IMG/VR virus record: IMGVR_UViG_3300033148_005162
Coordinates: 1-50,219 of that record
Source: a virus
Lineage: Duplodnaviria; Caudoviricetes
DNA: 50,219 nucleotides
Strand: one strand, 5' to 3'
In this document: positions 3,355-21,195 of the stretch, piece after piece
Layout of the letters: every line of letters begins with the position of its first letter
Position numbering within the stretch: the first letter of the stretch is position 1
Translations under genes and position numbers: made by a program
The notes under the pieces: model-generated
The model's database searches: none
What the model was told of the DNA's origin: nothing
The model's input: the letters and a program-made list of their open reading frames with translations, nothing else

Positions 3355-3639
3355 TTAATTTTCTTTTTCCATTTTCTTATCCCATTTATTTAATATCGAA
3401 TCACCGGCATAACCTATAAAAAATGACGCTGTTGGATTTAATATTCCACCCAGGTCAGCTAAAATTATAGCTGACATCGTTACAAAAAAAGCTAATATGG
3501 TTTTGTCTCGGTTATTACGTAAAAAATCGCTCCACGCAATTTCTGATTCGCGTTTTACCTTTTTCTTTAAAAAATGAATTATCATGCCTAAAATAGCCAT
3601 GAGTATTGATTGCCATACTTCCGGTATCTGTTCAACCAT
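3355..3639 (-). CDS. putative holin
   Basis: 94 aa, 2-3 TM segments, charged C-terminus, GGAGG SD. Confidence 0.6.
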   Translation of the reverse strand: MVEQIPEVWQSILMAILGMIIHFLKKKVKRESEIAWSDFLRNNRDKTILAFFVTMSAIILADLGGILNPTASFFIGYAGDSILNKWDKKMEKEN

Positions 3640-5516
3640 TGTTTATGCCTCCTATATATAGACTTTATAAAAAATGTTTGTTTAGGAATATATGCTAATA
3701 GATCTTCAGTAAATAATGTTGGTAAAATATTATTATTAAAAAGCGTGTCCGCTGCAACTTCTAATCTATAGTATTCATTCCCTGTCGTATCTATCATTAC
3801 AAAAAAAAGATTTTCGTAATTACTATTTATCGAAATTCCTGATGAAATATTACCTATGTCTTGAAATGTATAACTTGTATCATAAAGAATATAACCAACT
3901 CTACTTATTGCCATTATTGTATTCCTGGCATTTGATTTTAATATTAATTTTCTTCCCTTCCATTCAGTTTTTGTATACCATGCTGCTGTGTCGCTTGTTA
4001 AATAAGCAACGCCGTCTTCGTCATGTCTATACCATTTATTATAATTACCATTATACATTGAGACTAAAACTTCTGACGTGTATAAATTTTTAATAGAGTC
4101 AAGCTTAACATAAACTGCATTAGTATCTCCTAATGCTAATGTACACTTTCCAGCAGCAGTAAGTGTTGTAGTTTCAAGCCAAAGCCTTGGATTATTTGCT
4201 TGTTCGCTCTGGCTAAAAAAAATATTAGCATAATCTCCATCTTCACTTTGAGCACAATACTCTTGATTAGATGAATCCCACTTCATTATCCATCCATAGT
4301 TATCCCATGTACCGTGAAGAAAATTATTAATATGATTTCTTAAAGTTTCATATCCTGAACTATCTTCTGAAATTTCTGCCCATACATATCCGCTAGGATA
4401 ACGCCCTAATGCCGTTAATGCTGTATCGGTAACAGATCGATCGCCTCCTCCGCTAATTGCTGTCGAATCCCATTCAACGCCATCAACTCCGGTTTTTGCA
4501 CTATCCCATGTAGCCTCTGTTACATCCCAATCCGTTAAACATCTATCCAATGCTATATACCAATTATTTATATTCACTGGTCCATTTATCCCAAGCGTTA
4601 CTACATAAAGTGAACATGTTAAAGACATAACCGTTCCCGATATAGATGAAAAATCCATCCATAAAAGTCCTCGCCTTCTATTGCCTTCTGATTGATTTGA
4701 GATTCCAATTTTATCATATCCGTCATAATTAGTATTCTTTGTCGCTTCATCCATATATGTATCTTTTACATCTGTTGTACCTGTAATTAAGGTAGTCGGA
4801 TCAACAGTTATTGGATAAGTCATTCCGGTTGTATCTATTTTCACCTTTACAAATGTTCTAGTACCTATTTTCTTAATATTATATTCCGCTTCTCTTGTTA
4901 AATTATTCTTATCATAATAAATTATCTTTGCTAACGTAAAAGCTAATTTGTTATTTATCTTATCATAAAATTCGAATCCTTTATCAGTGTTTTTAATTTC
5001 TCTTGCCGTATGCATAATTGCAAAAATAAAACTGTCCGGTGCTGCTCGATTTTTTAATATAATATCCTCTTTTATTCCATTTGAATTTATATATCGCACT
5101 ACATCAGCATTATTGTAAGCATTCGGAAATATTACTTTAGCATACTTCACATTCCCTTTTACATGATTCGCTCCTCTAATTGGTTTTAATGTCATCTTTA
5201 CATTATTATACTCAAAATAGTATAAATCGTCATAATAGTCGCCTGTCCTTAAAATGTAATCTGCTTTATATGATTTCTTGAATATTCCAAAATTATCATT
5301 TTGCAAAGTAAATGTATGCCTTTTCCAATGTCCGGTTTTTTTATCTCTATAATTTATACCTTTACTTATTAAATATTGCAAATTTCCATTTTGCTTTCTA
5401 TGTATCACACCATCCCTACTATAAGAAAATGAATCACCTTTTCTTAACCAGCTCTGACTATTTGCATTTCCAATTACAAAAAAGATGATTATTAATATAT
5501 ACATTACTTTTTTCAT
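3588..5516 (-). CDS. signal-peptide protein with wall-associated-protein-like N-terminal domain and DNRLRE (CBM96-like) domain
   Basis: MKKVMYILIIIFFVIGNANS-Q; GIKEDIILK...YPITVDPT; DTYMDE..NTNY..RRRGLLWMDFSSI..EATWD..NYGWIMK..NPRL pattern. Confidence 0.7.
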   Translation of the reverse strand: MKKVMYILIIIFFVIGNANSQSWLRKGDSFSYSRDGVIHRKQNGNLQYLISKGINYRDKKTGHWKRHTFTLQNDNFGIFKKSYKADYILRTGDYYDDLYYFEYNNVKMTLKPIRGANHVKGNVKYAKVIFPNAYNNADVVRYINSNGIKEDIILKNRAAPDSFIFAIMHTAREIKNTDKGFEFYDKINNKLAFTLAKIIYYDKNNLTREAEYNIKKIGTRTFVKVKIDTTGMTYPITVDPTTLITGTTDVKDTYMDEATKNTNYDGYDKIGISNQSEGNRRRGLLWMDFSSISGTVMSLTCSLYVVTLGINGPVNINNWYIALDRCLTDWDVTEATWDSAKTGVDGVEWDSTAISGGGDRSVTDTALTALGRYPSGYVWAEISEDSSGYETLRNHINNFLHGTWDNYGWIMKWDSSNQEYCAQSEDGDYANIFFSQSEQANNPRLWLETTTLTAAGKCTLALGDTNAVYVKLDSIKNLYTSEVLVSMYNGNYNKWYRHDEDGVAYLTSDTAAWYTKTEWKGRKLILKSNARNTIMAISRVGYILYDTSYTFQDIGNISSGISINSNYENLFFVMIDTTGNEYYRLEVAADTLFNNNILPTLFTEDLLAYIPKQTFFIKSIYRRHKQWLNRYRKYGNQYSWLF

Positions 5517-5540
5517 TTCTTATAAATCCTTTCTCTATTT

Positions 5541-5987
5541 TTACACTGTTCTTCGCGGTGGCTGCTTATCAATTATTATATCCGTTGTTGATGTTGCAAT
5601 TCCAACTTGTACAATTCGTGCTTTTGCAGAACGTATTGAACCTACATCTTGCGTTAATTTTCCCGAATTGCTCGGATGTAAATATACATATTTTCCAGCC
5701 GTTAATCCAGAAAATCCTGTAACAAGACCGGTTGTTTGTATACGCACAGAAACTGATCCTCCTACTGCGGTATCTGTATAAAAACCTATAAACCGAGCGG
5801 AATCTGAGGATGTTGGATTTGCTTTATCCACAGTATTATTGCCGGAAATATATACCGCATCTTGTTGTGCTAATCCTCCGGCTGCACTCGTCATTGATAT
5901 AAAACCAAGACTTATTATATCAGCTCTTAAATTATTATGATCTGATGCTAATATCTGATCATTTATTACTACATCCGATGACTGCAT
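5541..5987 (-). CDS. small virion/tail-tip protein with DUF2190/cement-like beta domain
   Basis: ILASDHNNLR; VYISG..KA..; GLTAGKYVYL..G.LT..QVGIA pattern common in phage structural proteins. Confidence 0.55.
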   Translation of the reverse strand: MQSSDVVINDQILASDHNNLRADIISLGFISMTSAAGGLAQQDAVYISGNNTVDKANPTSSDSARFIGFYTDTAVGGSVSVRIQTTGLVTGFSGLTAGKYVYLHPSNSGKLTQDVGSIRSAKARIVQVGIATSTTDIIIDKQPPRRTV

Positions 5988-5988
5988 C

Positions 5989-6537
5989 TTAATAATCCCA
6001 TTGTCCTGTTACACGCCATTTTATTCTTGCTTTTGTACTGTCTTCTCTTGCAGCACTTGTATCAGACATGCCAAAAGTAAATTTACCCCATAATTCTTTT
6101 TGTCCTGTTGGCGTAATTCGCAAATTAGTCCATATATTATGATTTTTTGTTGAGTCATTTCTGATTATATATATCGTTCCACTCGTATCCCCCAATGGTG
6201 AATGTTGTAAGTTAGAATCATAATCGGCAATCCGAATTTGTACTGCCGGAAATCTTCCATCTGAATAATATTGTTGTATTGTGTCAGCTCCAAAACCGCA
6301 TGTATCAACTTTGTACTGTACAATTAGTGACTTTACTTCAGATACATGCGGGATTACAAAAGTAATGGAATCGTCTGCAGTTACACCTTGTGTTATGGTA
6401 TCAGTCTGAACAGGAACCAACTCTATATATCTAGGTCTATGCTTAATCTGATAAGGTACTGTGTATGCAGTTAAAAGAGAAAACACGTATATCGCCGCTA
6501 AAAATATAAAAAAGTTTCTCATTGTTCTATACTCCAA
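5989..6537 (-). CDS. signal-peptide-bearing beta-rich protein, tail module
   Basis: MRNFFIFLAAIYVFSLLTA; 9 of 13 Asp followed by Ser/Thr. Confidence 0.65.
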   Translation of the reverse strand: MEYRTMRNFFIFLAAIYVFSLLTAYTVPYQIKHRPRYIELVPVQTDTITQGVTADDSITFVIPHVSEVKSLIVQYKVDTCGFGADTIQQYYSDGRFPAVQIRIADYDSNLQHSPLGDTSGTIYIIRNDSTKNHNIWTNLRITPTGQKELWGKFTFGMSDTSAAREDSTKARIKWRVTGQWDY

Positions 6538-6549
6538 TTTTTATTATTA

Positions 6550-7146
6550 TTATGCGTCATTTGCCGTAAATGTCTGAATTACTGTTAATGTATTGCTTGC
6601 CGTTTTTGTCTCTGATATTGTTGAATGGTTGAATAATGTACCGGTATCTACTGCCGCCGTTGCGTCATCAAGAAAATGACCTATTTCAGTTAATGTTCCA
6701 ATTCCTTCAGACGGTAGCCAAAAGGTTCTTGCCTCAACTTGTATGCCTGATCTTGCTAACAAGGTAACAGCTTTTCTTTCTAATTCCGCTCCTAATGTCG
6801 TATCACTTACCGACGGAGCTGTCGAATCTGTACCAACAGCACAATATGTAATATATGTTGCCGTTGTAGCTTCATTTGCTAAAGCTTTCATAAATTCCGT
6901 TCTGCCAACTGTTGTCGTTAAATTGTCATATTCGGTACTTTTTACAAGTCCCTGCTCTAATCGTTTATCGAAATCTATTAACTCTTTATAATATTTTTTC
7001 CAATCTCCACTTTTATACAATCTCTGCAAATACTTATAAAATTCTTGTATTGTGTGTACAACATTACTAGGCGATGCAAACGTAAATAAGTCAGGATTAT
7101 GATGCTGTATTGTAATATGTCCTTTAATATTAAGATGTTGAATCAT
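6550..7146 (-). CDS. tail-tip/baseplate structural protein (tail-collar-fibre-like)
   Basis: NLTTTVGR..YCAVGTDSTAPSVSDTTLGAELERK..TLTEIG..GTLFNH pattern. Confidence 0.65.
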   Translation of the reverse strand: MIQHLNIKGHITIQHHNPDLFTFASPSNVVHTIQEFYKYLQRLYKSGDWKKYYKELIDFDKRLEQGLVKSTEYDNLTTTVGRTEFMKALANEATTATYITYCAVGTDSTAPSVSDTTLGAELERKAVTLLARSGIQVEARTFWLPSEGIGTLTEIGHFLDDATAAVDTGTLFNHSTISETKTASNTLTVIQTFTANDA

Positions 7147-7161: not shown

Positions 7162-8865
7162 TTATCCATATACACAAAAACCATAATATCCAGGATCAGC
7201 GCATGGACTGCCGTACCTGTAAACTGTTGCAAGACTATCAATACTCGTTATTAATGTTTCGGATATTTTCCAATCATCTTTTACAACTATCGCTTTATCA
7301 ATTCCGTCTGCTTGCTGATCAGCTTTCTTTGTCTGCTCAAATAGTGTAACTAACATATCAATTGCAGATTCCGGTTTCTCAGAAAATTCTATTGAGTATG
7401 AAAAAAGTCCACCTCCATGCGCCTGTATCCGTATTGATCTTATTATATAATCACCATTACTCGGTTCACCGGTTAAATTTATCGTAAAAATTTGACCTAT
7501 CGCAAAGCCATCTTCGTAAGTGTTTGTTGATCCCGTTACAGTTACGTTTCCATATCTGTCTACTTCGACTTGCCCTCTGCGAAATGCCTCGGTTATATTA
7601 CCTATAGAATCATCTCGAATTACTTTCTCATATATTCCATCACCTTTACCCTCTTGTGTCGCAATTACGCCTTGCGTTGTCGTATCTTCTACTACTGTTA
7701 TTACTCTTATTTCATATTGATACACTACCGTTAATGTGGTTCCGGTCGGTAACGCTCCTGCCCTCCGAGTTAATGTCTTTCTCCAATAATCACACTCATA
7801 ATCTTTTGTAGTCAGATCATCTATGTTTGGAAATCCAACAGTTTTCGATGTACCATTCTCGTCTAATTGTATTGCATGTGGTTTTGCAGTTAGATTAAAT
7901 TCTGTCGTTATATCATCTCCGGAAAATGTTTCGGTTAACGGCGGTCCGAAAAATTTATCACCAATTACTGTTACTTTATTCGATGTTAATGTATAATTCG
8001 GATTTAAACTCGTACCAAAAAAATTATTTCTTGTCAAATCATTTAACTCAATTGGCGCAACTAATGTTTCTGTAGCAAAAAAATGAATATCTTTATTAGG
8101 GTCTACATAAAAATTATATCCCGTTTCACTTACTAATTTCCGAATACATTCCGCAGGTGTTATATAATCAAAACTTATATATTCGATTATCGGTCCTTCT
8201 TGGACATTATTCGTTGTAATCGCCCAATCAGAATGAACATATCCTGAAACTATATCTTCTATTATTGTTTTACATGTTTTATTCTCATATACTTCTGCTA
8301 CTAATTTTCTTGTTAAAACTATCTCATAATCCTGACAGGTAACTGAATACTGCATTGTTGTTCCGGATATGATAGAAGGCTCAGCTTCAACTATTATCCC
8401 GCCGAACAATGTCGTTGAATCTCCAATAATAACAATTTCCTGTCCCCTTACCGGAGTACTTTCCGGATCATTTAAAACAAAAGTACAGGAATCAGAACCT
8501 CGTGTTAATACCGAATCTATAATTAAAGATTGCCGATCGATTTTGTTTCCAATATCTTGGTAATTTCTGAAAATTAAAAAATTACAATAAATGTTTGTTG
8601 TTGATATATTACCTCTTAAATTAGAAATTGCAACTTTAAAATATGTCGTAGTTGGCTCTTCTACTAAATATATTCGCACATCTTGATTAGGCGTACCTAC
8701 AAAAACAATTGGTATCGAACTAAATTCAGCCGGAATACTATTCGAAAATCCGGTTAAATCAGAATATAAAATTTTTTGTGGATGATCTGGAGTACCGATT
8801 ATTTTTATATCGTTACTTAAAAATATTGTTTTATCCAATATTTTATAAGTTACCGTATCAAACAC
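7162..8865 (-). CDS. tail-tip hub (Tal/baseplate-hub-like) with extra N-terminal domain paralogous to 11395..11673
   Basis: Downstream of TMP; SCTFVL..LFGGII..VTCQDY..FYVDPNKDIHFF pattern. Confidence 0.65.
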   Translation of the reverse strand: MFDTVTYKILDKTIFLSNDIKIIGTPDHPQKILYSDLTGFSNSIPAEFSSIPIVFVGTPNQDVRIYLVEEPTTTYFKVAISNLRGNISTTNIYCNFLIFRNYQDIGNKIDRQSLIIDSVLTRGSDSCTFVLNDPESTPVRGQEIVIIGDSTTLFGGIIVEAEPSIISGTTMQYSVTCQDYEIVLTRKLVAEVYENKTCKTIIEDIVSGYVHSDWAITTNNVQEGPIIEYISFDYITPAECIRKLVSETGYNFYVDPNKDIHFFATETLVAPIELNDLTRNNFFGTSLNPNYTLTSNKVTVIGDKFFGPPLTETFSGDDITTEFNLTAKPHAIQLDENGTSKTVGFPNIDDLTTKDYECDYWRKTLTRRAGALPTGTTLTVVYQYEIRVITVVEDTTTQGVIATQEGKGDGIYEKVIRDDSIGNITEAFRRGQVEVDRYGNVTVTGSTNTYEDGFAIGQIFTINLTGEPSNGDYIIRSIRIQAHGGGLFSYSIEFSEKPESAIDMLVTLFEQTKKADQQADGIDKAIVVKDDWKISETLITSIDSLATVYRYGSPCADPGYYGFCVYG

Positions 8866-11405
8866 TATTTTATCCCTTTCAAACTATCAATCTGCGCCTG
8901 CAATAACTCGATCGATCTACCAAGCTCAAATATATATCTATTTAGATTTAATCCGATTACAGGCTTAATAATACGTGTATAGTTTTGTTGTAGATATTCA
9001 CGTTTAGAACTGTAAATTTTATCCGTTACCTTATCTTTCCATGCCGTCACATAAAATTTTTTTCCGTCAATATCCGTAATCTCAACTGTAGTCTGACTAA
9101 GTTTCGCATCTATCGTTTTCCAGATGTTCTTGCGATGTATGTCTTTTTTGTTTTTATCCCGATAAAATACTTCCTGTATAACTACTTGCATATCAGCCGG
9201 TAATGTGCTATGATCCAATTCTGCATAATTTCCGGACTCAGTTCCTGCTTTATATTTTATCTGTTTAATCCTATCAATTGCCTTGTTGGATATGGCTTTC
9301 TCAGAAGTGGTTATAAATGTATCAGCCCGTACACTCATTGTCACAGTCAGGGAGCTATCCATCCACACAGGACCTGTAAACTTACCTGCTCTGGCATGTA
9401 TAGAATCTGCTGTAACTACTCCAAACTTATCTTTCGAACTATTGGCATATAATCTACGAATTTCGGCTGCGGATAATGCACGTGAGTAATATTGAAAATC
9501 GTCTATATAACCGTTGAAATAACCAGAAGGAGTGCCAGCATTCGCACCTAATCGAATATTTACATCATTTGTCTGTCTCGTACCTGAAAATATAGCAGTG
9601 TCTTGTTCAACTGCATTAATATATACTCTCATTGTTTCTGCACAAACTGTAGCAGTTATATGATGCCATTTATTAATAGTTAGCACATTAGATGCTATCA
9701 AATCTATGTAACTTATACCATTCCCTAAACTAAACCGTATACCACCACTTGTTACTTGATTCAACATAAAGGGCATCATATGGGTATCACCATCTCGTTT
9801 ACTAACTATTTGAGGTGCTCCTGTAACATCTTTAACTGGTTTCATCCAAAGAAGAATTGTAAAATTAGTATCCGATTCGAAAGATGTCTCATTTGACAAT
9901 GTTATATAATCATCAATTCCATCAAAACTATATCCGCCTGTCCCAACTTTAAATGAATCTGGTTGTGATATATTTGTAGCTCCTACCACAGTACCATTAT
10001 TACTATTTCCTGAATAATCATTAGCGTTTTCATCAAAGGGATAATAACCCTTCAACGAATCCCTACTTATTCCATCCAATGAAGCCGATATTGAAATATG
10101 CGCCTTCACACTATCATCAAACGCCGCCCGTGCAAGTTTAGTTGCTAAACTATCATTTACCTCAGTTTTTAACGAATATTGAGGATGATCATTATCTGAT
10201 AATCCAGACAATAATCCATGATCACTAATTCCACTTCCGGAAGCGGTTCCATGTACTTGTCTTACATCAGTTAATATAGCATCGTCAAAATCAGTACAAT
10301 TAGCTTGATAAACTAACCACATTAATCTAACCGCATGATAAGCATCTTCATATTGGATTGTCGGAGCATCCTTTGCTAATGCTCCTGTTGACGTATTAGA
10401 CAAACTCGATTCCAATGCCATTTGAACTTCAATATGTTCAAGATTGTAAAAATAAATTAAAGCCTTATACCATTTATTATTAACAACTGGAACTTTTCTT
10501 CCCTCTGTCTCACTCCAAACACTATCAGTAGGCATCTCCTTAAAGGAAGCCATACTATCAAGAGAAGACCATCTCATCCTACCACGATATTTTCCAGCTC
10601 TACATGTATCTGAAGTTACTAAAGTATCAACTACTATTTTATGCAAACCCTTATCAAAATAAACACCATTATTTAATTTTAATTGTTTTGTCCCCGGTAC
10701 ATTTGTCACTGTCATTCCGGAATAAACTAACGCTCCATGAACATCAGCAAAATAATCATATGAATTATACCATCTGTTGTGTAATTCATGTTCTGCAAGA
10801 TAATTCATTGGATACTCATCAGTCATTATTTCACCGAGTACAACAATATTCTTTTTATTATTACTATTGACATTATCTCTTGGATCACTATTACTTAAAA
10901 GTATAACATCTCCCGAATCTTTATGTACATAAAGATAATTTTCAGCATCGGCAACTAAAGTACATGTCCTTGCAAAATATGTGTATAGTGTATCTCCAAA
11001 TATAATACTACATGCAGGAACAGAAACATATAAATCATTATCATAAATATTACTAATGATAAAGGAATCATTATTGGCAATTCCCTGGCTTCCAGAGTTC
11101 TTAAATACGATCTTATCTAACTTTGATACTATCGATTGAGAATTAACTAGAGAATCTTTAACAATTTTTTTAATTTCCGCCATTGTAATAATTAATGAAT
11201 CGTTTACTCTATTTGATTTATAAACATATTTAACCTGTAATGTATCCGGAATATCTACAAATCCACTATCATCAGGTGTGATTTTATCAACTTTCAAAGA
11301 ATCTTTTATTGTAAAATCTACAGCAGATCCCGCCTGTCCTAATACTATTACCGGAAACAAGATTATACATGATATTATAACGAATATTTTCATACTAACT
11401 CCCAA
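8865..11405 (-). CDS. tail-fibre/receptor-binding-like protein: signal peptide, LamG-like domain, C-terminal S74-like chaperone/coiled coil
   Basis: MKIFVIISCIILFPVIVLG-Q; LKGYYPFDENANDYSGN..FDGIDDYI..WHHI..FNGYIDDFQYYSRALSAAEI (LamG); C-terminal LGRSIELLQAQIDSLK. Confidence 0.75.
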   Translation of the reverse strand: MGVSMKIFVIISCIILFPVIVLGQAGSAVDFTIKDSLKVDKITPDDSGFVDIPDTLQVKYVYKSNRVNDSLIITMAEIKKIVKDSLVNSQSIVSKLDKIVFKNSGSQGIANNDSFIISNIYDNDLYVSVPACSIIFGDTLYTYFARTCTLVADAENYLYVHKDSGDVILLSNSDPRDNVNSNNKKNIVVLGEIMTDEYPMNYLAEHELHNRWYNSYDYFADVHGALVYSGMTVTNVPGTKQLKLNNGVYFDKGLHKIVVDTLVTSDTCRAGKYRGRMRWSSLDSMASFKEMPTDSVWSETEGRKVPVVNNKWYKALIYFYNLEHIEVQMALESSLSNTSTGALAKDAPTIQYEDAYHAVRLMWLVYQANCTDFDDAILTDVRQVHGTASGSGISDHGLLSGLSDNDHPQYSLKTEVNDSLATKLARAAFDDSVKAHISISASLDGISRDSLKGYYPFDENANDYSGNSNNGTVVGATNISQPDSFKVGTGGYSFDGIDDYITLSNETSFESDTNFTILLWMKPVKDVTGAPQIVSKRDGDTHMMPFMLNQVTSGGIRFSLGNGISYIDLIASNVLTINKWHHITATVCAETMRVYINAVEQDTAIFSGTRQTNDVNIRLGANAGTPSGYFNGYIDDFQYYSRALSAAEIRRLYANSSKDKFGVVTADSIHARAGKFTGPVWMDSSLTVTMSVRADTFITTSEKAISNKAIDRIKQIKYKAGTESGNYAELDHSTLPADMQVVIQEVFYRDKNKKDIHRKNIWKTIDAKLSQTTVEITDIDGKKFYVTAWKDKVTDKIYSSKREYLQQNYTRIIKPVIGLNLNRYIFELGRSIELLQAQIDSLKGIK

Positions 11406-11673
11406 TTATAATCATATCTACCAATACATTCGAAATTGAAAGATCACCGGATAAATTACTCATAGCTACTTGAAATAGAGATGTTGTTTTCGAACCATTT
11501 ACTATATGTACATCTCTATCATTATACTTCGAAGCTATCATTATGAACGGAGTTATGGAAAATGTACTCGGCAAGGAATTTCCATCAACATCAACTAGGT
11601 CAGAATATCTTATAGTTTGCGGAGACGAAACGGTCCCGGTTATATTTTTATCTTTAATATAATAATTTGCCAT
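11395..11673 (-). CDS. small tail protein, paralogous to N-terminus of 7162..8865
   Basis: Shared GT..PQ.I.YSDL..NS.P..FS..P..TT..F.VA.SNL.G. Confidence 0.7.
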   Translation of the reverse strand: MANYYIKDKNITGTVSSPQTIRYSDLVDVDGNSLPSTFSITPFIMIASKYNDRDVHIVNGSKTTSLFQVAMSNLSGDLSISNVLVDMIIIGS

Positions 11674-11680: not shown

Positions 11681-14326
11681 TTATATCCTTAAGACTCTAG
11701 ATCGACGTTCTACTTCTCGACCAATTTCTTTTGCAACTTCTTTTGCTAATAAATTTTTATTATTCATTACAGATTGTCCAACTCCTGTAATATCAACTTT
11801 ACCAACATTTACTGTAATATTCCCATCTGTTCCAAATCCGCCTCGTTGTGCAGCAGCTTTACGGATAAAATCAGACAACTCAGGCGGTAAAACCATCTCA
11901 CGAGCATGTAACAATGCAGGCATATCAAAAGGAACAATACCCCCTCGTTGAAATGCCGCACCTTCAACACCTCCCGCTCCGTGGCCACCCATACGTTCAA
12001 GTTCCATTCCCTTTTGTTCTAATGCTTTTGCCGCTTCTTCAACTTTTGTTGCCCCATGTTCTAATTTAAATTTTTCTAATTCTTTCTCCCTTGCTTCTGC
12101 TGCAGCTGCTAACTCCTCCGGCGTCTTTTTTCTAGCACCAAATAGTTTCTTTATACTACCAACTATTTTTGACACACCAAAAGCAGCTGTAGCAATTATA
12201 CCACCACTGGCGGCAGTCCCAAGTAGATTACCACCAAAAGAAGAAATTAAATCAGATAACCCACTACCTACTTTACCCAAAACAGAACCAAGACCTTTTC
12301 CAAGCTTACTAACCAATCCGCTAAATACTCCGCCTAATCCCTTTTTTATACCCCCGCCTAAATCTTTGACAGTACCCGAAATCATATTTTTGATGAACTT
12401 ATGAATGTATTCATGAAGTATTTGTTGGAAAGAACCAATCACCGATTTCTTTATACCGTCAAATGTACTTCCTATAAGATCGCCAAAATTTTTAAAACTC
12501 ATATTCTGTTGCATAATCATAGTTGCAGATGCATCCGCCATACTGTCAAGATGTCTTTCCCAGTCAATCTTGATTTCGCTAAATATACTTTTAGTTTTCT
12601 TAGGCAATAAGTTATACCCTTCATCCCCGGTGATTTTATAAAGATGCTTAGCAATTGCTCGTTCTTGATCTGTTAAAGAATCAAATTGTCCTTTTTTTAT
12701 CTTATCAATTACAGTTAATGTTGCTTCTTTGTATTCATCTAAGTTCATGCCGACTTTTTCAGAATACTTCTGCATATCAACAAGATTATCTTCAAAATAT
12801 TCCGACCATTCCCTTTGAGCTTTAGTTAATGTATTTATATTTTCAATATCTATTTCGCCTAATGATTTTTCATAACTTTTTTGAAATTCATCAATACCTC
12901 TTTGAAGTTCATCAACAGTTAAATCTTGAGCTTCTTTGACTGCTTCAAAACTATTGTTAACATGTTCGACCATAGTATCGAGCGATGTTTTTTCTGCTTC
13001 TTCTAATTCTGTTATTTTCGCCTTTTCTTCTTCAACTTGTGTTTTTCTTAATTCTCTTCGTTCATTATAATAATCTGACCAAGTCTTAGATTGCGCTTCC
13101 TTTGATTTTTCGTTCCTTTCCTCAATTCTTGCATTAATTGCTTCTAATTCAGCTTCTAGTTCAGATGTATCTTCTCCAAACAATTTTTTTATTACTATTT
13201 GTCCTTCTAGTATTATTGCTTTTGCTTTATCTATTGTATTCGCAATTCCTACCATAAACAAATCGATATAATCTTTTAATGTATCAAATGTAGCTCCAAT
13301 TGCATCAGCTACCACACCGGTAATATCTTGAATACCTAATAAATTTGTATTCCACGCTGTGTATAATCCAACAACTGCTGTTGTAATACCCATTACTGCC
13401 AATGTTATTGGATTAAATGCTGCAACTAAGGTAGGTAACAATATTAATATTGGACCTATTGCGGCAGCTAATGCACCAAATGTTGTTACAACAGCAGTAA
13501 TTGTTGTAGCAACACTTTTATTTTTATCTATCCATTCCACAGCTTCCTTTATAAAATCAGATGCCTTACTAGTTATACTTACCAATGACGGTAAAAATCC
13601 TTCAACTATTTTTTGTGTTAATCCAAAGATACCGGTTTTTAATTCATTTATATTATCATTAAAATCTGCTGCTGCATCTGCTGTATTTTGATCTAATTCC
13701 AATCCAAGTGCTGCAGCTTCTTCCTGCAAATTTTTGATTCCATCTCCACCTTGTTTCAAAAGAGGAACCATATCTGCTCCGGAACGTCCAAATATATTCT
13801 GAGCTAATGCTGCTGCTTTTGTATCATCTTTCATTCCTTTTAATGCTTCTGCAACTTCAAGCAACACATCATTGGAATTTTTTAAATTTCCATTTGAATC
13901 TGTAACTTTAATATCCAACGCTTCGAACGAATCTTTTGCCTCACCGGTTCCTTTTGCGGCATCATTCATATTTTTGGCTAATTTTCTCAATCCGTTTGTT
14001 ACAGTAGCAAAACTTGTTCCTGATTGTTCAGCAGCAAATTTTAATGTAGACAATTTTTCAGTTGCAACGCCTGTACGAATTCCGGCTTTTTGTATTTCAT
14101 CACCGAATTTAGTTACTTTTGATACTACAGCGGTAAATGTTGCAGTAATCGCAGTACCCGCAGCGGTTAAACCAATGCCGATCTTTTTTATAGAATCGTT
14201 CCATTTAGATACTGATTTTTCAGCTGAACTGGTTTTATTAATCGCTTCAGATACAGCTTTTTTAAATTTATCACTATTCAGAATTAATTCTAATTCAGCT
14301 TTACCAATTGATACCGCACTACTCAT
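11681..14326 (-). CDS. tail tape measure protein
   Basis: 881 aa, Ala/Gly-rich helical, IFGRSGADMVPLL motif, hydrophobic segment, C-terminal FQRGGIV..ALLHAREMVLP. Confidence 0.92.
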   Translation of the reverse strand: MSSAVSIGKAELELILNSDKFKKAVSEAINKTSSAEKSVSKWNDSIKKIGIGLTAAGTAITATFTAVVSKVTKFGDEIQKAGIRTGVATEKLSTLKFAAEQSGTSFATVTNGLRKLAKNMNDAAKGTGEAKDSFEALDIKVTDSNGNLKNSNDVLLEVAEALKGMKDDTKAAALAQNIFGRSGADMVPLLKQGGDGIKNLQEEAAALGLELDQNTADAAADFNDNINELKTGIFGLTQKIVEGFLPSLVSITSKASDFIKEAVEWIDKNKSVATTITAVVTTFGALAAAIGPILILLPTLVAAFNPITLAVMGITTAVVGLYTAWNTNLLGIQDITGVVADAIGATFDTLKDYIDLFMVGIANTIDKAKAIILEGQIVIKKLFGEDTSELEAELEAINARIEERNEKSKEAQSKTWSDYYNERRELRKTQVEEEKAKITELEEAEKTSLDTMVEHVNNSFEAVKEAQDLTVDELQRGIDEFQKSYEKSLGEIDIENINTLTKAQREWSEYFEDNLVDMQKYSEKVGMNLDEYKEATLTVIDKIKKGQFDSLTDQERAIAKHLYKITGDEGYNLLPKKTKSIFSEIKIDWERHLDSMADASATMIMQQNMSFKNFGDLIGSTFDGIKKSVIGSFQQILHEYIHKFIKNMISGTVKDLGGGIKKGLGGVFSGLVSKLGKGLGSVLGKVGSGLSDLISSFGGNLLGTAASGGIIATAAFGVSKIVGSIKKLFGARKKTPEELAAAAEAREKELEKFKLEHGATKVEEAAKALEQKGMELERMGGHGAGGVEGAAFQRGGIVPFDMPALLHAREMVLPPELSDFIRKAAAQRGGFGTDGNITVNVGKVDITGVGQSVMNNKNLLAKEVAKEIGREVERRSRVLRI

Positions 14327-14658
14327 TACATACCCTTTAGATTAGGTTGTCCTATACCCAATTTAAAAGCTTTTAGGTTAGGATATTTTAAACGTTTTCC
14401 GTGATATTCAGAAAATGTTAAAAGTCTATTACTATATTGCCTTTCCGGTTTAGCATATGTCTGTTTTTTTGTTTGTATTATATTTTGTTCAGTTAATTCG
14501 TTATTTAACTCCTCATTCAATATTTGTTCTCCTAAAACACAAATTGCGTAATCATAATTAAGAGCAGTCCATTTATCCCGGATATCTAAAAGTTGACTCG
14601 GTCTTTGTCCGTAAGTTTTTGCTATTATGTGCTGGGATAGAATGTGACCGCTGCTCAC
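14326..14658 (-). CDS. tail assembly chaperone, frameshift extension (T-like)
   Basis: Overlaps end of upstream chaperone in +1 frame; AKTYGQRPSQLL..A.NYD motif; abuts TMP. Confidence 0.75.
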   Translation of the reverse strand: MSSGHILSQHIIAKTYGQRPSQLLDIRDKWTALNYDYAICVLGEQILNEELNNELTEQNIIQTKKQTYAKPERQYSNRLLTFSEYHGKRLKYPNLKAFKLGIGQPNLKGM

Positions 14659-15100
14659 GAAAAAAAGATTGATTTGCTATATCCGGAAGCGCAGCGACCA
14701 TTATCGTTAATAAATCCGCTTTAGGTATCATATCTACCGGAACAACACCCCGCTGTATTGCTTCATCTTTATTGTCCTGTGATTTTACGGCTTTAGGTTC
14801 CACAAGCGCGGCAATAGCAATCAATTCAGCTTTATTTATAATTTCGATCACATCTTCATCAGTAAATTCGGCCAAATTAAATTCAGATTCTTTATTACTA
14901 CCATCCTCAGATGGAGCTAATGCTTTCTCAAATCGCTTATACAATTCAATCGGTTGAATTCCAGATGTTATTATTTCAAAAGGCTCTAATTTTTTAATTT
15001 TTACTTTTGCTCCTGACGGCAAATCTATCGTTACAATTTCCGCTTTCGAACTTTCCTGCCAAATATCAATTGCCGATTTTTTAGAAGTTTTTTCTTCCAT
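14573..15100 (-). CDS. tail assembly chaperone (G-like)
   Basis: Between tail tube and TMP; acidic; IDLPSG motif; core ends at SFFR. Confidence 0.8.
   Translation of the reverse strand: MEEKTSKKSAIDIWQESSKAEIVTIDLPSGAKVKIKKLEPFEIITSGIQPIELYKRFEKALAPSEDGSNKESEFNLAEFTDEDVIEIINKAELIAIAALVEPKAVKSQDNKDEAIQRGVVPVDMIPKADLLTIMVAALPDIANQSFFREQRSHSIPAHNSKNLRTKTESTFRYPG
14657..14668 (-). other. programmed +1 (or -2) frameshift site UCU UUU UUU CGU
   Basis: The +1 frame opens a few codons upstream (after TAG) and continues into 14326..14658; the -1 frame hits TGA immediately. Confidence 0.7.
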
Positions 15101-16223: not shown

Positions 16224-16724
16224 CTATTTACTTCCCTTATTTTTTGATATTAGATATTTTTTCATCGCAGTTTCAACAGCTTTAATTTGTTTTAATGATG
16301 TCTCAAATAATGCTGGCGCCATAAAAGGCTGTGCAGGTTGTCCTGCTGTCGATTTCCTAACTATCCAATTTCCTTGTTTGTCTTGCCACGCCATCGCTCT
16401 TTTTACTTTCGGCGTAATTCTTTTTTTGAACGGACCGTGAATACCTGTCCCGGTTTCAATTTCAGCAGCATGATCCGCATGCGCTATTATTTGTGTACTG
16501 TGTTTTTTTCCTGCATCAGTAGATTGCACTGTTTTCGTCGCTGCGATACTTTGCTTTAAATCTCCCGTATCTACAACTACCCGATCTTTAGCCTCAGACT
16601 CTACTGTTAAAGATGCTGCAATTAATAATTTATGCTGTTGTGTTATCGGTAAATCAAGTACATCTTTTACAATATCACAGGGTTTTTTTGTCCAGAACGC
16701 TCCGCCTTTTTGATTCGATGGCAT
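16224..16724 (-). CDS. HK97 gp10-like neck/tail completion protein
   Basis: VDTGDLKQSI..IETGTG..GQPAQPFMAPA motifs. Confidence 0.85.
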   Translation of the reverse strand: MPSNQKGGAFWTKKPCDIVKDVLDLPITQQHKLLIAASLTVESEAKDRVVVDTGDLKQSIAATKTVQSTDAGKKHSTQIIAHADHAAEIETGTGIHGPFKKRITPKVKRAMAWQDKQGNWIVRKSTAGQPAQPFMAPALFETSLKQIKAVETAMKKYLISKNKGSK

Positions 16725-17821
16725 TAATCTAATTTCCTATAAACTACTACAAAATATAAACCTGCAATATTTTCTCCCGTTCCGGTCTTTGTAAAATGCG
16801 CAGATAAATAATCTCCTGATTCCATCAATCCCTGTTTTTCTTCTATTGTACCGACATCGGAAAAAATACCCTGAGTCAATGCGGTACCTGCTGCATATGT
16901 CCCGCCAATTAATATCGATCCGATTTTACTCGTATAATTTATTTTAAAATCAATCTTCTCATAATTTGAATCGTCATCAGCCGCATGATCTTCTTTAGCT
17001 CCTATATATATTTTTTCAATCTGTAATTTTCCATTTGCATATAAGAGCACACAAACTTTGTCGTCATCATCGGCTGCGGTAATATCTCCGGCAGAATGTA
17101 CTAATGAAAAATATCTTGTTTGTGCATTTGGCTGAGTTATAATACCCTCGAGGGATACGTTAAAAATATCATCTCCGCCCTCCTCTTCCTTTACCGATAA
17201 GTGATCTCTGACAGTTTGATCGCTTGTAATTATCCCGTTTGTATCTCTAGAATTTATTACTTGATTTTCTGCGGTAATTGAACTCGATGCCGTTTCGTTA
17301 ATGCTGTACTCTAAATGCACAACAAGTCCGGATAATGCCATTCCGGAACCTGCTTTAGTAATGTCAAGATAAATTCCTTCTCCGGCTGTAAGGACCTTAT
17401 GCGTTGAATCTAATGTTGCACTTGATGATGGCGTTGCTAATGTATAGCCGTCTTCCGTTGTTATTGTTGCAATCGTGTTACCGTCTGAATCTTTAAAAGC
17501 CATTGATTGATAATTTGAAGAATCTGACGATACCGTTGTATCAACTGATATCCGCAATCGTTCAATCGTTACCGGTTTGTATGCAATAAATAACGGATCT
17601 AGATAATCATTATCTCCATAATCAGCCGCAATATCTCCTATCGGAATATGTGCAGTTCTGTGATCATATCCGGACGTTGTTATTAATTCACCATATTTGT
17701 TCAAATGCGCGACTTCTGTACCGGATTTTTTAAAGAGAAGCGAATCACTATTATTAGATTCTATTATTTCAAGTACAGAATCGCTTCCGCCTATATCGTC
17801 ATTAAATGATAATAATCCCAT
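16724..17821 (-). CDS. putative virion accessory protein with two copies of a ~175-aa beta domain
   Basis: GDIAAD/GDITAAD, SNY, TK.G.G....GL repeated twice; paralogue of 17861..18385. Confidence 0.7.
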   Translation of the reverse strand: MGLLSFNDDIGGSDSVLEIIESNNSDSLLFKKSGTEVAHLNKYGELITTSGYDHRTAHIPIGDIAADYGDNDYLDPLFIAYKPVTIERLRISVDTTVSSDSSNYQSMAFKDSDGNTIATITTEDGYTLATPSSSATLDSTHKVLTAGEGIYLDITKAGSGMALSGLVVHLEYSINETASSSITAENQVINSRDTNGIITSDQTVRDHLSVKEEEGGDDIFNVSLEGIITQPNAQTRYFSLVHSAGDITAADDDDKVCVLLYANGKLQIEKIYIGAKEDHAADDDSNYEKIDFKINYTSKIGSILIGGTYAAGTALTQGIFSDVGTIEEKQGLMESGDYLSAHFTKTGTGENIAGLYFVVVYRKLD

Positions 17822-17860: not shown

Positions 17861-18385
17861 TTATTCCGTCAACGTGTAAAATAATATTAATGTCAATCCT
17901 GATATTGCTTGTCCACTACTAGTTTTTGTAAATGTCATTTCAACATGGTCATCTGATGACAGAACCTTATGTGTACCGTCTAAGGCTCCCATGGATTGCG
18001 GTGCTGTTGAACCTGCTGTAAACACCGGCGTCCATGCATAGGATACTATTACATTTCCATCCGAATCTTCTAATTCTATTGTTTGATAATTTACGGCATC
18101 GTTGGTTTTTGTTTCATCAGCAGTAAGATAGGCGGCGTACAATGTTGCTGCGTGTTCTTTAGAAAAAACTACCTTTTTTATAGAATCTGAATCAGCTGCA
18201 ATATCACCAACATTTACAACTTCATAAAAATACTGCTGATTTGATGTTGTAGCAGGTAAACCATTTATGTCGATGGAAAATGTTTCAGACGAGTCTTTAG
18301 AGAAAGTTAAAAAATCCCCTGAATTTTTATTGATTTCAATTACTGCTCGGGATGGGCGTTTTGCTTCTATTTGCAATACTGGCAT
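17861..18385 (-). CDS. putative virion accessory protein, single copy of the same domain
   Basis: VGDIAAD..NYQ..DSDGN..LDGTHKVL..TKTSSGQAISGL. Confidence 0.7.
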   Translation of the reverse strand: MPVLQIEAKRPSRAVIEINKNSGDFLTFSKDSSETFSIDINGLPATTSNQQYFYEVVNVGDIAADSDSIKKVVFSKEHAATLYAAYLTADETKTNDAVNYQTIELEDSDGNVIVSYAWTPVFTAGSTAPQSMGALDGTHKVLSSDDHVEMTFTKTSSGQAISGLTLILFYTLTE

Positions 18386-18424
18386 TTTGAAATCTCCCTT
18401 TTATATATATATTTTTCTATATGC

Positions 18425-18601: not shown

Positions 18602-18924
18602 AATTTAAATTCTCCTTGTTTTATTCCGATTTCTATTTCTTGCATATCGCCGAAAAAATCGGGTGCCCTATTTAACATTACAATAGAATATTCTATTCCA
18701 TTTATTACTATTAAGTCATTCGGATTTACAGCAGTATTTCCCGGAAGAAAAACCGTTCCGTCAATTTCTACGAATGTTCCGGTTGAATCTTTAGATAATT
18801 TCTTAATCAATTCATATCTGCAGTTTAATATAGTTTCATTATACCTTTCCGGTTCTCCATATTCACTTTCAGATTCTAAAGTTTTTATCGTACACTCTTG
18901 AAACATCGGAATTATTGATACCAT
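18598..18924 (-). CDS. head closure / head-tail joining protein
   Basis: 108 aa, YGEP..CR..VFLP..DLIVINGIEY pattern, synteny. Confidence 0.75.
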   Translation of the reverse strand: MVSIIPMFQECTIKTLESESEYGEPERYNETILNCRYELIKKLSKDSTGTFVEIDGTVFLPGNTAVNPNDLIVINGIEYSIVMLNRAPDFFGDMQEIEIGIKQGEFKL

Positions 18925-18968
18925 TTAAATCCTTTATATTGTTAATTTTGATAATTTATATTATACAA

Positions 18969-19472
18969 TTATGCAATTGCTCTTCGTCTTGGCAATTGTG
19001 TCAATATTCCTTTAAGTCCTTTACCGTAGTTCGCTTGCCACCTACCTATCATTTGAGTTGACAATCCAATCGGATTTGCTAATACATATAATGCAGTTTG
19101 CGCTATGACCATTTTTACTTTATTAGTCGGTTCTGCATTTCCATACGTATAGGAAATTACTATATTGTTTCGCCCTTTTGTCCAACCTGAGGAATAATAA
19201 AATGCATTTTTTTGCATATCTACTTCTATATAACTTGTTGAAATTTCCACATCGTCAATTGTTACATCTGTAATTGTTAATATTGGTGCCTTTTTCGGAA
19301 ATAATAAAATTCCTCCATGCCCTGAATGTATTTCGTTCGATTCCGTTCCCTCACGATAATATATTCGCTGATATTCCTGTACAATATTTTCAGCAACTTG
19401 CAAAGTTTCTTCAGGAACATCTTTACCTGTTATTGTTTTCGCTTCTGTTGTTGTACAAAGTAAAGCCGACAT
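18969..19472 (-). CDS. head-tail adaptor (gp6/gp15-like)
   Basis: G.NNIVISYTYG..P..VK pattern; synteny. Confidence 0.75.
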   Translation of the reverse strand: MSALLCTTTEAKTITGKDVPEETLQVAENIVQEYQRIYYREGTESNEIHSGHGGILLFPKKAPILTITDVTIDDVEISTSYIEVDMQKNAFYYSSGWTKGRNNIVISYTYGNAEPTNKVKMVIAQTALYVLANPIGLSTQMIGRWQANYGKGLKGILTQLPRRRAIA

Positions 19473-19530
19473 ATATTATTGTACCTTATATTTACATTAT
19501 CAATTTTTCACAATTTATTAATCTTTTTTT

Positions 19531-21195
19531 TTATTGTGGCACATAAATTCTAATCCAATTTACTGTTGTAGATACTGACGGTCTTGATGCATATATTCTC
19601 AATGTATCAACTGTCGGATACGCTATAAATCTTAATGCGGAATCAGCCAACGCTCCACCGGTTGCCTCCTCTGAAACTATTACAATATCTGTTGATTTCA
19701 TACCGTTAACATATGTTGCTACGGAACCGACAGAAGTAAATGTTACTGAACCTGCAAATTTTGTACTGTTCGAAGCAAAGACTTCAGAAACCTTTATAGT
19801 GTCTATATCTGCCGAACCTGCATTTATAGAATCGGCATCAGCTCTTAAATTGTCTGTATATAATTCTCTGAAACGTCCTGTTGGTGCCTCTATAATTCCG
19901 GTTTTAATTTTTCCATTTTCTATTACCGAACCTCCAATTGTAGCACCACTTATTTTTGCATATCCATTTGATTCATAAACTCCCGGTGTCAATTTCCATA
20001 GTTCTCCACCTGAAGAATTTTCTGTCCCTGTATATAAATGTCCCTGAAATGGAATTATAAATCTAATAGCTGTATTTGTTGTATCTCCAAAACCCCGAGC
20101 TGAGGCAGGGAAAAATACATTTGTGTCCGGATCGGTATAAAATATTTTCGCTCCGTTCGCCGATTTTGTCCCAAGAAACAATTTACCTGCATATACTGTA
20201 GCAGCAGTTACCCTGTCCTGATTCCTTACTACCGATTCACCAAATCCCGAATCGCTATAAAATGTAACAGCTGTCCATGCTGTGTCTCTTGTAGCATTGG
20301 TACGGTATACCCTGACACCGTTTGAATCTCCGACAACTGCATACAAATGTTTATCTACTTGAATTAATTTATCAATTGTTGTTGATAGTACTCTTGTTAC
20401 CGTTGCAGAAGTTACACCGGAATCAGAAAGCGCTTTATTCCAATTTATCAAGTCTTTCGTTCTGTACATTTGCGCTCCGGTTCGATTATGTGTCCCTGCC
20501 CATAAATATCCATTAAATTGTTCAAAAGTAAGCACGCCGACATTTAAAGAATTTCCATTAACAAATCCATTCGTGTCTGATGCTGTAAATGTAGATAGAT
20601 CGGTAGTATAATATGTTTCTGCTCCGCCTTGTGTGGATTGTGAATTATAATATGAAACAACTAATTTACCGTCGAATACAGTCATTGCAGTAATAGAATC
20701 GTTATCAGCATCACCTTGTCCATTTGTATCTATCACGGTGAATATTGTATCATCCGGTGTCTGCGTTGCATATAATCGACCTCTACCAAGTGTATCACTC
20801 ATTGCTACAATAAGGCGATCTTTATATTCAATCATACCGGTAATGCTTGCATTCGATGTATCATTTAGACCAAGCAGGTTTGTTAATGTTACAGCTTCAA
20901 TTCCATCGGATTCATTTAATGTATATATCGCGACCGGCTGTTGGTTTGTAACATTTGTTCCAATCCATAATTTATTTCCATATACTGTTGCAACGGAAAG
21001 TGCAGTATTAGCAGTATTGCCAAGTCCATTTGTGCCAACCTGCTGCCACTCCGTTGTGTCGATTACAAATTCCGTTAATCGATACGGTTCCAAGATTGAT
21101 GTACCTATCGGAAATTGTGCTCTTGTTGGCATCACTATCGAAACTATTGCTAAAATTATAATTGTAACAATAAAAAATGTTATTATATTTTTCAT
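19531..21195 (-). CDS. signal-peptide-bearing beta-propeller protein in head module
   Basis: MKNIITFFIVTIIILAIVSIVMPTRA-Q; repeated blades (YGNKLWIGT, FDGKLVVS, FNGYLWAGT, YAGKLFLGT, FQGHLYTGT). Confidence 0.75.
   Translation of the reverse strand: MKNIITFFIVTIIILAIVSIVMPTRAQFPIGTSILEPYRLTEFVIDTTEWQQVGTNGLGNTANTALSVATVYGNKLWIGTNVTNQQPVAIYTLNESDGIEAVTLTNLLGLNDTSNASITGMIEYKDRLIVAMSDTLGRGRLYATQTPDDTIFTVIDTNGQGDADNDSITAMTVFDGKLVVSYYNSQSTQGGAETYYTTDLSTFTASDTNGFVNGNSLNVGVLTFEQFNGYLWAGTHNRTGAQMYRTKDLINWNKALSDSGVTSATVTRVLSTTIDKLIQVDKHLYAVVGDSNGVRVYRTNATRDTAWTAVTFYSDSGFGESVVRNQDRVTAATVYAGKLFLGTKSANGAKIFYTDPDTNVFFPASARGFGDTTNTAIRFIIPFQGHLYTGTENSSGGELWKLTPGVYESNGYAKISGATIGGSVIENGKIKTGIIEAPTGRFRELYTDNLRADADSINAGSADIDTIKVSEVFASNSTKFAGSVTFTSVGSVATYVNGMKSTDIVIVSEEATGGALADSALRFIAYPTVDTLRIYASRPSVSTTVNWIRIYVPQ

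Follow-up and report, generated by a model that had tools for sequence, protein, structure and literature searches.

In the textbook view every part of a tailed phage is assembled in the cytoplasm and the fibres are plain proteins, and to our knowledge no such phage is known to build any part of itself outside this compartment. Glycans are carried by the particle proteins of glycosylated mycobacteriophages, where phage glycosyltransferases act in the cytoplasm on the capsid and the tail tube, and small exported proteins are encoded among the tail genes of several phages (T5 Llp, lambda Lom, HK97 gp15, and also Cor). The present work deals with the virus record IMGVR_UViG_3300033148_005162, the whole of which, 50,219 bases, is the window analysed here, and with four proteins encoded among its head and tail genes. 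These proteins, designated A, B, C and D, start with leaders of the general secretory (Sec) type and contain, well above chance, the motif D-S/T followed by a hydrophobic residue, which is known from the O-glycosylation of Bacteroidota. Compared with the glycosylated mycobacteriophages, no glycosyltransferase gene was seen here and the proposed route is export followed by the periplasmic system of the host; compared with exclusion proteins of the Llp, Cor and Lom type, A–D are not small (177–842 amino acids, aa) and the position of D is conserved in four related loci (L001 and L011–L013). It is likely that A–D are exported and O-glycosylated by the host, because they combine the leaders with a specific and conserved excess of the motif, and because of what has been reviewed of the glycosylation system (PMC12871550).

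The substrates of that system are noncytoplasmic, as A–D would be, and like these they have L, I, V, T, A, S or M behind D-S/T more often than expected by chance, but they are cellular proteins, whereas A–D are late proteins of a phage with fibre- and lectin-like folds (PMC12871550). According to the review, the motifs in exported Bacteroidota proteins are nearly fully occupied, engineered or foreign motifs are used once exported, and the system works across species, and the word “phage” does not occur in it (PMC12871550). In Porphyromonas gingivalis phages, Matrishin et al. (2023) described signal peptides whose cleavage is predicted to expose Gln, which was read as an adaptation to host secretion; the difference is that these are five prophage genes of unknown function, seen as envelope modifiers and not as fibres of the particle module, and “glycosyl” occurs 0 times in the text (PMC10367356). 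The MAT fibres of Bdellovibrio bacteriovorus (Caulton et al. 2024) are trimeric and phage-tail-fibre-like, carry a signal peptide and fold outside the cytoplasm, and therefore phage-fibre-like folds can be exported; they are, however, cellular proteins of a predatory bacterium, linked to neither the sequon nor glycosylation, and are likened to A–D by description only (PMC10769870).

The sole experimental precedent found for leader-bearing proteins in particle preparations, which we regard as a hint, comes from Cellulophaga phage phi18:3 (NC_021794). Its gp085, gp086 and gp087 have leaders with Gln at +1 (YS/Q, SA/Q and NA/Q, the slash marking the predicted cut) and are entered in the record, “based on experimental MS/MS proteomics analysis” (MS/MS, tandem mass spectrometry), as structural proteins of the virion or as tail proteins. 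Being large late proteins of a Bacteroidota phage with classic leaders and Gln, they resemble A, C and D; unlike them, they show no sequon excess, and phi18:3 is a podovirus with a host of the class Bacteroidia and Shine-Dalgarno sites before 2 of its 42 open reading frames (ORFs). No paper discussing the leaders of phi18:3 structural proteins was found in a literature search outside which the original proteomics paper lay, and none on exported or glycosylated fibres of tailed phages, the nearest being the remark on genes of Porphyromonas phages that obey the Q-rule (Gln at +1) (PMC10367356).

Leaders and translation starts

The first-pass annotation had described four leader-bearing ORFs in the head/tail operon with the cut sites ANS/Q, VLG/Q and TRA/Q, and all four were found on the minus strand with these leaders, only the starts of B and C being shifted: they most likely lie at ATG 6522 (MRNFF...) and ATG 11393 (MKIFV...), not at the upstream TTGs. 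The start of B was moved because GGAG precedes this ATG, at a distance of 9 nucleotides, and because a 177-aa form of B is present in the database; GGGAG stands 6 nucleotides before the ATG of C. Each of the four leader genes thus has its own ribosome-binding site at normal spacing, the other two being AGGA (A) and AAGGAAG (D).

As judged by our own rule of hydrophobicity and charge, the leaders have an MKK, MR or MK start, which supplies one basic residue or two, then a core of 13–20 hydrophobic residues, and small residues at positions −3 and −1. The predicted cuts are A-N-S/Q in A, L-T-A/Y in B, V-L-G/Q in C and T-R-A/Q in D, which gives Gln at +1 in three of the four proteins and Tyr in B. 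Elsewhere in the head/tail operon, no N-terminus shows a hydrophobic stretch of comparable strength, in agreement with the earlier statement that the core virion proteins are leaderless, and three membrane proteins of the lysis cassette (1634–2092, 2077–2835 and 3355–3639) score 1.9–2.7 on N-terminal hydrophobicity. A lipobox with Cys at +1 was found at none of the predicted cuts of A–D, the I-I-S-C at residue 9 of C (842-aa form) being too near the start for a lipoprotein leader. The type IX sorting domain (TIGR04183 and kin) gave no match in an NCBIfam scan of A–D and none in the whole genome, the latter search being weak, with no match in control genomes either.

The D-S/T motif in the genome and its relatives

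The motifs D[ST] and D[ST][AILVMT] were counted in 53 minus-strand proteins and compared with 2000 composition-keeping shuffles of each. D[ST] occurs 15 times in A (6.9 expected), 9 times in B (2.3), 23 times in C (11.6) and 17 times in D (6.9), and the three-residue motif 8 (2.5), 5 (0.9), 14 (4.5) and 10 (3.2) times, respectively, with z-scores of 3.5–5.0 for the former and 3.7–4.7 for the latter (p <= 0.002 each). The hand counts made at first reading (15, 9, 23 and 17 against 5 in the 505-aa capsid protein, with S/T after 9 of the 13 Asp of the small protein B) were exact, and the excess that they indicated survives the shuffling. Beyond A–D, a single protein of the 53 reaches p < 0.05 on the three-residue motif, namely the membrane-anchored 252-aa lysis protein 2077–2835, and no leaderless protein of the genome does so; these five ORFs have the five top motif scores, and the two other membrane proteins of the lysis cassette show no excess. 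Pooled, the five leader or anchor proteins contain 40 motifs against 11.1 (about 3.6 times chance), and the other 48 proteins (12,050 residues) 36 against 35.9. The reservation expressed earlier about the leaderless D/S/T-rich protein 16724–17821 was right but harmless, as its 8 D-S/T against 6.7 expected (z 0.6) are explained by composition.

The excess is directional and confined to one kind of motif: in the leader proteins without their leaders, no departure from expectation was seen for the reverse dipeptide [ST]D or for E[ST], N[ST], N-x-S/T and D/E-x-N-x-S/T. N-glycosylation, considered because the terminase and the endolysin have matches in Helicobacter prophages, was rejected, neither the Campylobacter-type D/E-x-N-x-S/T nor N-x-S/T being enriched. 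In the leader set, D-S/T is followed by L 12 times (1.8 expected) and by I 9 times (2.1), by T, A, S and F three to five times more often than expected and by D, E, K, R, Q, P or W not once (7.9 expected), and in the leaderless proteins the profile of this third residue is flat. The order of preference published for Bacteroidota O-glycosylation is L, I, V, T, A, S, M, and G, F and C are met now and then (PMC12871550); the leader-set profile matches it, apart from V, which is not enriched (2 against 2.0), and N, which is (7 against 1.9).

An outside background was drawn from 791 ORFs of at least 150 aa from 80 unrelated phage loci. The 765 leaderless ORFs contain 1192 motifs against 1198.9 expected, 13 of them lying above z 3, the 20 ORFs with a leader but without Gln contain 34 against 35.1, and the six with both leader and Gln 61 against 27.9. 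Among cultured phages, counterparts of the 252-aa lysis protein have an excess of the same kind: Bacteroides phage B40-8 encodes after its endolysin a membrane-anchored protein with 5 motifs against 0.8, and the anchored lysis protein gp27 of crAss001 has 4 against 0.3. The tailspike and fibre proteins of crAss001, gp22–26, have no leader and do not depart from expectation (z −1.4 to 1.7). These counts indicate that in phages with confirmed Bacteroidota hosts the periplasm-facing proteins carry the excess and the cytoplasm-built fibres do not.

D has two close homologues, P0002 and P0003 (the latter from L001), with 50% and 44% identity, in which the leader is kept and Gln is aligned. Both homologues keep 13 of the 17 D[ST] of D; of the remaining residues, Asp is kept at 6 of 16 positions and Ser/Thr at 32 of 99, and 188 of all 554 columns are identical. 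This preferential retention supports selection acting on the D[ST] sites. L001 is a syntenic phage fragment with a G+C content of 46%, in which the D homologue (10 motifs against 2.4, z 5.2) lies between a conserved 99-aa gene and connector genes. In L011–L013, whose capsid proteins are 43% identical, the D position is held by a non-homologous protein starting with MKKFILFLFILTTFVIA/QQ, which in L013 has 17 motifs against 4.3; it was rejected as a homologue of D, having only a short DTL/IDT repeat in common with it. Overall, leader genes are kept at fixed head/tail positions in relatives with capsids 43–64% identical, and all nine related leader proteins that were read (P0002, P0003, P0017–20 and L011–L013) have Gln at the predicted +1, so the expectation that leader and sequons would be retained in homologues is borne out by D and extended by L011–L013 and by the family of C.

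The domain of C that contains the DNDHPQY motif occurs in 80 phage loci, nearly always in leaderless proteins. A search with the N-terminal half of C gave 14 matches, four leader-bearing, all with Gln at +1 and motif z-scores of 6.7–10.2, and ten leaderless with tail-fibre-like starts and z-scores of −1.9 to 0.4. Similarly, three D-type proteins of the phage lineage have z-scores of 4.2–7.6, and nine distant beta-propeller homologues of D from other bacteria, several with signal peptides, lie between −1.0 and 0.9. From the split within the C family and the chance-level counts of the distant propellers it follows that the motif excess goes with the leader and the phage group and not with either fold. 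In L025, a relative of C in a different kind of phage, two adjoining proteins with leader and Gln (z 6.6 and 4.6) are encoded between terminase and portal.

Two other phages encode leader-bearing members of the DNDHPQY family. In L027 (ORF over 10001–10717) Gln is missing at the cut, the motif is rarer than expected (3 against 9.0) and the phage lacks Shine-Dalgarno sites; in L032 (9359–14608) Gln stands at +1, the motif is mildly in excess (19 against 12.3), Shine-Dalgarno sites are few, and a further two proteins with leaders come next. L010, a phage with a G+C content of 55% and a distantly related hub, encodes among its tail genes (12364–15072) a protein of 902 aa that starts with a Sec-type leader; it was tried as a relative of A, has no likeness to A or to any known family and contains 3 motifs against 3.5, and from it leader-bearing tail-module proteins may extend beyond Bacteroidota.

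As to folds, residues 54–250 of A resemble the N-terminus of the leaderless gp18 of Bacillus phage PBC1 (E 9e-8 to 7e-11 across Bacillus phages), a 1063-aa “virion structural protein” encoded directly after the tape measure gene, so that A retains this N-domain behind its leader. For B, a search of 1.84 billion representatives gave a single relative, a repeat lipoprotein of 2182 aa. The LamG domain of C resembles virion proteins of cyanophages and Flavobacterium phages; the AlphaFold model of C (mean pLDDT, the predicted local distance difference test, 29) was not used. The model of D, of moderate quality (mean pLDDT 57.8), is a generic beta-propeller of seven or eight blades with a template modelling score by query of at most 0.48, which resembles lectins, glycan lyases and sialidases in general fold only; D had no match among phage proteins, and a search of an atlas for its structural features gave none.

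Probable host, proposed course of assembly and rival explanations

Shine-Dalgarno-like sites precede 32 of the 55 called genes (58%), 11 of 16 in L001 and 7 of 13 in L013. In four of the five cultured phages of the class Bacteroidia that were sampled they precede 5 of 53, 2 of 45, 2 of 64 and 2 of 63 genes (3–9%), which is at or below the chance level of 5–9% in random 15-mers, and class Bacteroidia ribosomes are reported to ignore such sites (PMC13000457, PMC9976891). Because of this difference the host is probably not a member of the class Bacteroidia. Shine-Dalgarno use has been given as 32% in Ignavibacteria, 37% in Fibrobacteria and 0.1–3% in classes of the Bacteroidia type (PMC10783764), the mean Q-value as 71% in Bacteroidetes, with 77% in Ignavibacterium album and less than 9% in most Chlorobi (PMC5837995), and the D-S/T motif as enriched among noncytoplasmic proteins in almost every family of Bacteroidota, as GTDB delimits the phylum, and in Fibrobacterota (PMC12871550). 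The best fit would be a Shine-Dalgarno-using lineage of the wider Bacteroidota, Ignavibacteria in the first place, or Fibrobacterota, so that the attribution to Bacteroidota made from the sequence alone holds in the wide sense, by the Q-rule and the motif, and is disfavoured for the class Bacteroidia by the use of Shine-Dalgarno sites. The promoter consensus of Bacteroidia, TTTG..TAnnTTTG, was found 3 times in the genome against 2.5 expected and never on the coding strand, and one metagenome scan gave no relatives beyond those already found.

What has to be accounted for is that the four genes encode leaders and have a ribosome-binding site each, that Gln stands at +1 in three of the proteins, and that the motif excess is specific, conserved and linked with the leader. 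It is suggested that signal peptidase I would cut the leaders, exposing in A, C and D a Gln which would be cyclised to pyroglutamate, and that the unfolded or folding chains would then meet the general O-glycosylation system of the host on the periplasmic side, where many D-S/T-hydrophobic sites would be glycosylated. By their sugar-binding and fibre-like folds (CBM96/DNRLRE in A, an Ig-like unit in B, Laminin-G and fibre-like parts in C, the beta-propeller in D), A–D most likely serve as host-recognition or decoration parts. Docking on the cytoplasm-built particle would have to wait for lysis or for the opening of the inner membrane by the holin. In the lysis of diderm bacteria, holin lesions mix cytoplasm and periplasm before the outer membrane goes, and in that interval finished particles and concentrated periplasmic fibres would share a closed space. 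A small leaderless gene precedes each leader gene (98 aa before D, 92 aa before C, 198 aa before B and 148 aa before A), and our guess is that these neighbours provide the docking sites. A complex prediction for mature D and the 98-aa protein scored 0.00, which is evidence neither way, and the 148-aa protein was considered as a split-off fibre N-terminus, with A as the distal part, and set aside, since its likeness (E 0.02) to the first part of the protein encoded at the fibre position in distant relatives is weak and covers only some 30 residues.

Export and selection for the O-glycosylation motif are well supported, the excess surviving shuffling, being specific to D-[ST]-hydrophobic, tracking the leader and being kept in relatives. 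Translocation, cleavage, glycosylation and the host would follow from these features, and docking most weakly, through the homology of the N-domain of A and the central domain of C to leaderless virion or fibre proteins, a homology at the level of domains only. The reading as a whole, in which A–D are late proteins sent through host Sec, glycosylated and docked on the particle at lysis, stops a little short of being probable in our estimation. More tentative still is its fullest form, a two-compartment assembly with head and tail made in the cytoplasm and A–D folded, pyroglutamate-capped and coated with host O-glycans in the periplasm, from which they would snap onto the small leaderless docking proteins, in a Shine-Dalgarno-using host outside the class Bacteroidia, such as one of the Ignavibacteria.

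Several points weigh against it. Their docking is a prediction from the genes of an uncultured phage, and two scans of 185,579 species genomes gave no prophage relative by which the host could be identified. With its roughly 20 residues, the hydrophobic core of D could be a membrane anchor that stays uncleaved, the +1 residue of B is not Gln, and the leaders were called by our rule and not by a signal-peptide predictor. Leader and motif can occur apart: gp085–087 of phi18:3 have one motif each against 3.5, 3.2 and 2.9 expected, 13 of the 765 leaderless background ORFs exceed z 3, and the leaderless portal-fusion ORF of the relative L002 has 6 motifs against 1.2. In L013, 10 of the 17 sequons stand in one 15-residue tandem repeat, leaving 7 against 3.4 in the remainder. 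Lastly, the leader-bearing members of the C family lack the N-terminal domain of their leaderless fibre-like relatives, which fits an exported protein whether it stays free or docks.

The main rival to docking, which we hold to be rather unlikely, is that A–D are exported and glycosylated but never come to be on the particle, acting instead in the infected cell's envelope or in the lysate. There they might mask or destroy the phage's own glycan receptor (for superinfection exclusion or for protection of the progeny from debris), loosen capsule or exopolysaccharide, or make infected cells stick. Such roles would suit the lectin- or glycanase-like domains (CBM96/DNRLRE, Laminin_G_3 and a propeller resembling lectins, lyases and sialidases), as well as the C family, where the leader stands in place of the N-terminal domain of the leaderless relatives. 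Exported proteins among tail genes are, moreover, a known theme, as in T5, lambda and HK97. The Q-rule genes of Porphyromonas phages are themselves viewed as envelope modifiers by Matrishin et al. (PMC10367356). Yet A–D come from four large genes with 2215 residues in all, fixed among head and tail genes across relatives, whereas known exclusion genes are small and sporadic; A retains the N-domain of a PBC1 virion protein encoded after the tape measure; the leaderless candidates for receptor binding after the tape measure are, besides the hub, all small (92, 148 and 198 aa); and the leader-bearing proteins of phi18:3 were, per its record, in virion preparations.

It is improbable that the hydrophobic N-termini do not serve export, in which case the proteins would fold and assemble in the cytoplasm or be held at the cytoplasmic side of the membrane, and the motif excess would have a structural cause, for instance a fibre repeat. 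Assembly in the cytoplasm is established for the parts of tailed phages, and part of the excess in the relatives does lie in short DTL/IDT tandem repeats (residues 40–115 in L013 and the C-terminus of P0002). The positive charge before the core and the small residues at −3/−1, however, fit export with the N-terminus inside, there is no structural reason for Gln at the predicted +1 (three of four here and nine of nine related leader proteins), the leaderless beta-rich virion proteins of the same phage and the leaderless or foreign members of the C and D folds have no excess, and the third-residue profile copies the preference of the glycosylation system. That D/S/T-rich proteins with hydrophobic starts arose by accident, as the 8 D-S/T of the leaderless protein 16724–17821 and the leaderless ORF at z 4.8 in a relative might be taken to suggest, is so improbable that it can be dismissed, given z-scores of 3.7–4.7 for all four proteins after composition-keeping shuffles, the rarity of z > 3 in the background (13 of 765), the concentration of the five top scores in the four leader proteins and the anchored lysis protein, and the recurrence of the pattern in relatives.

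If fibre- and lectin-like parts are exported through Sec and glycosylated by the host, a host pathway for which there is no screening would bear on the host range, stability and immune recognition of such phages, recombinant fibres from E. coli would be devoid of their natural glycan coat, and particle proteomics should seek processed and glycosylated forms. For uncultured phages, the signature of leader, Gln at +1 and excess of the motif also serves as an inexpensive marker of the host phylum, and together with Shine-Dalgarno use it points here to a particular host group outside the class Bacteroidia, for which we know of no cultured phage. With an Ignavibacteria-like host, D-S/T O-glycosylation and its use by phages would extend beyond the classes in which this glycosylation has been shown.

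Gene order and other features of the window

The record is taken as a complete genome because exact direct repeats of 48 bp lie at its two ends (1–48 and 50172–50219). It has a G+C content of 34%, nearly all its genes are on the minus strand, no tRNAs were found in it, and sequence searches gave no close cultured phage relative. The phage is a long-tailed one, with one of its four leader genes (D) placed among the head genes. In minus-strand order the late genes start with the terminase (30219–31991), the portal/Mu-F-like fusion (26746–29877), the protease/scaffold gene and the capsid gene, followed by three small proteins, D, the connector and tail-tube genes, the tape measure gene, the 92-aa protein, C, the 567-aa hub-like protein, the 198-aa tail protein, B, the 148-aa protein and A, after which comes the lysis cassette with the endolysin gene as its last (Table 1).

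Table 1 Leader-bearing proteins, their neighbours and reference genes in the window (leader cuts are predicted; sequon counts are observed against expected)
Feature	Coordinates	Strand	Characteristics
Protein A	3588..5516	-	642 aa; leader MKKVMYILIIIFFVIGNANS/Q; DUF7948-like N-domain at about residues 54-250; CBM96/DNRLRE at residues 248-420
148-aa protein directly upstream of A	5541..5987	-	Leaderless; phrog_4368 (E 1.6e-6); sequon at chance level
Protein B	5989..6522	-	177 aa from ATG 6522; leader MRNFFIFLAAIYVFSLLTA/Y; FN3/Ig-like repeat unit at residues 98-151 (182-aa numbering)
198-aa tail protein	6550..7146	-	Leaderless; phrog_5417, phrog_4176 “tail fiber protein”
567-aa baseplate hub-like protein	7162..8865	-	Leaderless; weak Phage_GPD and phrog_400 matches
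Protein C	8865..11393	-	842 aa from ATG 11393; leader MKIFVIISCIILFPVIVLG/Q; central domain; Laminin_G_3 at residues 495-649 (846-aa frame)
92-aa protein between tape measure and C	11395..11673	-	Leaderless; free copy of the hub N-terminal domain
Tape measure protein	11681..14326	-	881 aa; leaderless; assigned by position, length and composition; sequon 5 against 2.7
Protein D	19531..21195	-	554 aa; leader MKNIITFFIVTIIILAIVSIVMPTRA/Q; beta-propeller at residues 41-408, then a C-terminal part outside the model
98-aa protein directly upstream of D	21261..21557	-	Leaderless; 56% identity to L001 5481-5780; no family match
252-aa lysis-cassette protein	2077..2835	-	N-terminal membrane anchor; spanin-like position; sequon 3 against 0.3, p 0.004
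Major capsid protein	23480..24997	-	505 aa; leaderless reference; D[ST] 5 against 5.6
Endolysin	1002..1610	-	GH108 and PG_binding_3, a type common in phages of diderm bacteria

The central domain of C contains the DHGLLSGLSDNDHPQY motif, which is common to phage fibre-like proteins. The 198-aa tail protein is homologous to a 192-aa protein encoded after the hub in L005 (E 1e-6). Relatives of the hub-like protein (26–29% identity) come after the tape measure in eight IMG/VR loci, and its sequon count is 6 against 3.0 expected (p 0.076). The 92-aa protein matches the first 100 or so residues of the hub with a BLASTP E value of 4e-15 and 37% identity over 83 aa, and the domain duplicated in this way is absent from distant hub relatives.

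The portal protein has a Mu-F-like domain as fusion partner, together with an additional C-terminal part, and reaches 1043 aa in total; its counterpart in L002 (1–1761) has an extra stretch of about 330 residues resembling a homing-endonuclease or intein-type insertion. The large terminase contains a low-complexity insertion of about 150 residues in the middle of the protein, so that matches to other terminases are split in two pieces. The leaderless proteins 16724–17821 and 17861–18385 (365 and 174 aa) are neighbouring paralogues between the connector and tail genes; the pair is also present in L001 and gave no family match. Another two paralogous genes, 3–674 and 48863–49435 on the minus strand, lie one at each end of the genome and have the block YKGELVAST.PR.GA.VHR...GFRFN in common. 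In the early/middle region 33232–37283, radical-SAM-like and methyltransferase-like proteins, a ParB-like nuclease and a PAPS-reductase/QueC-like ATPase were read from the translations only, and these genes may form a DNA-modification set.

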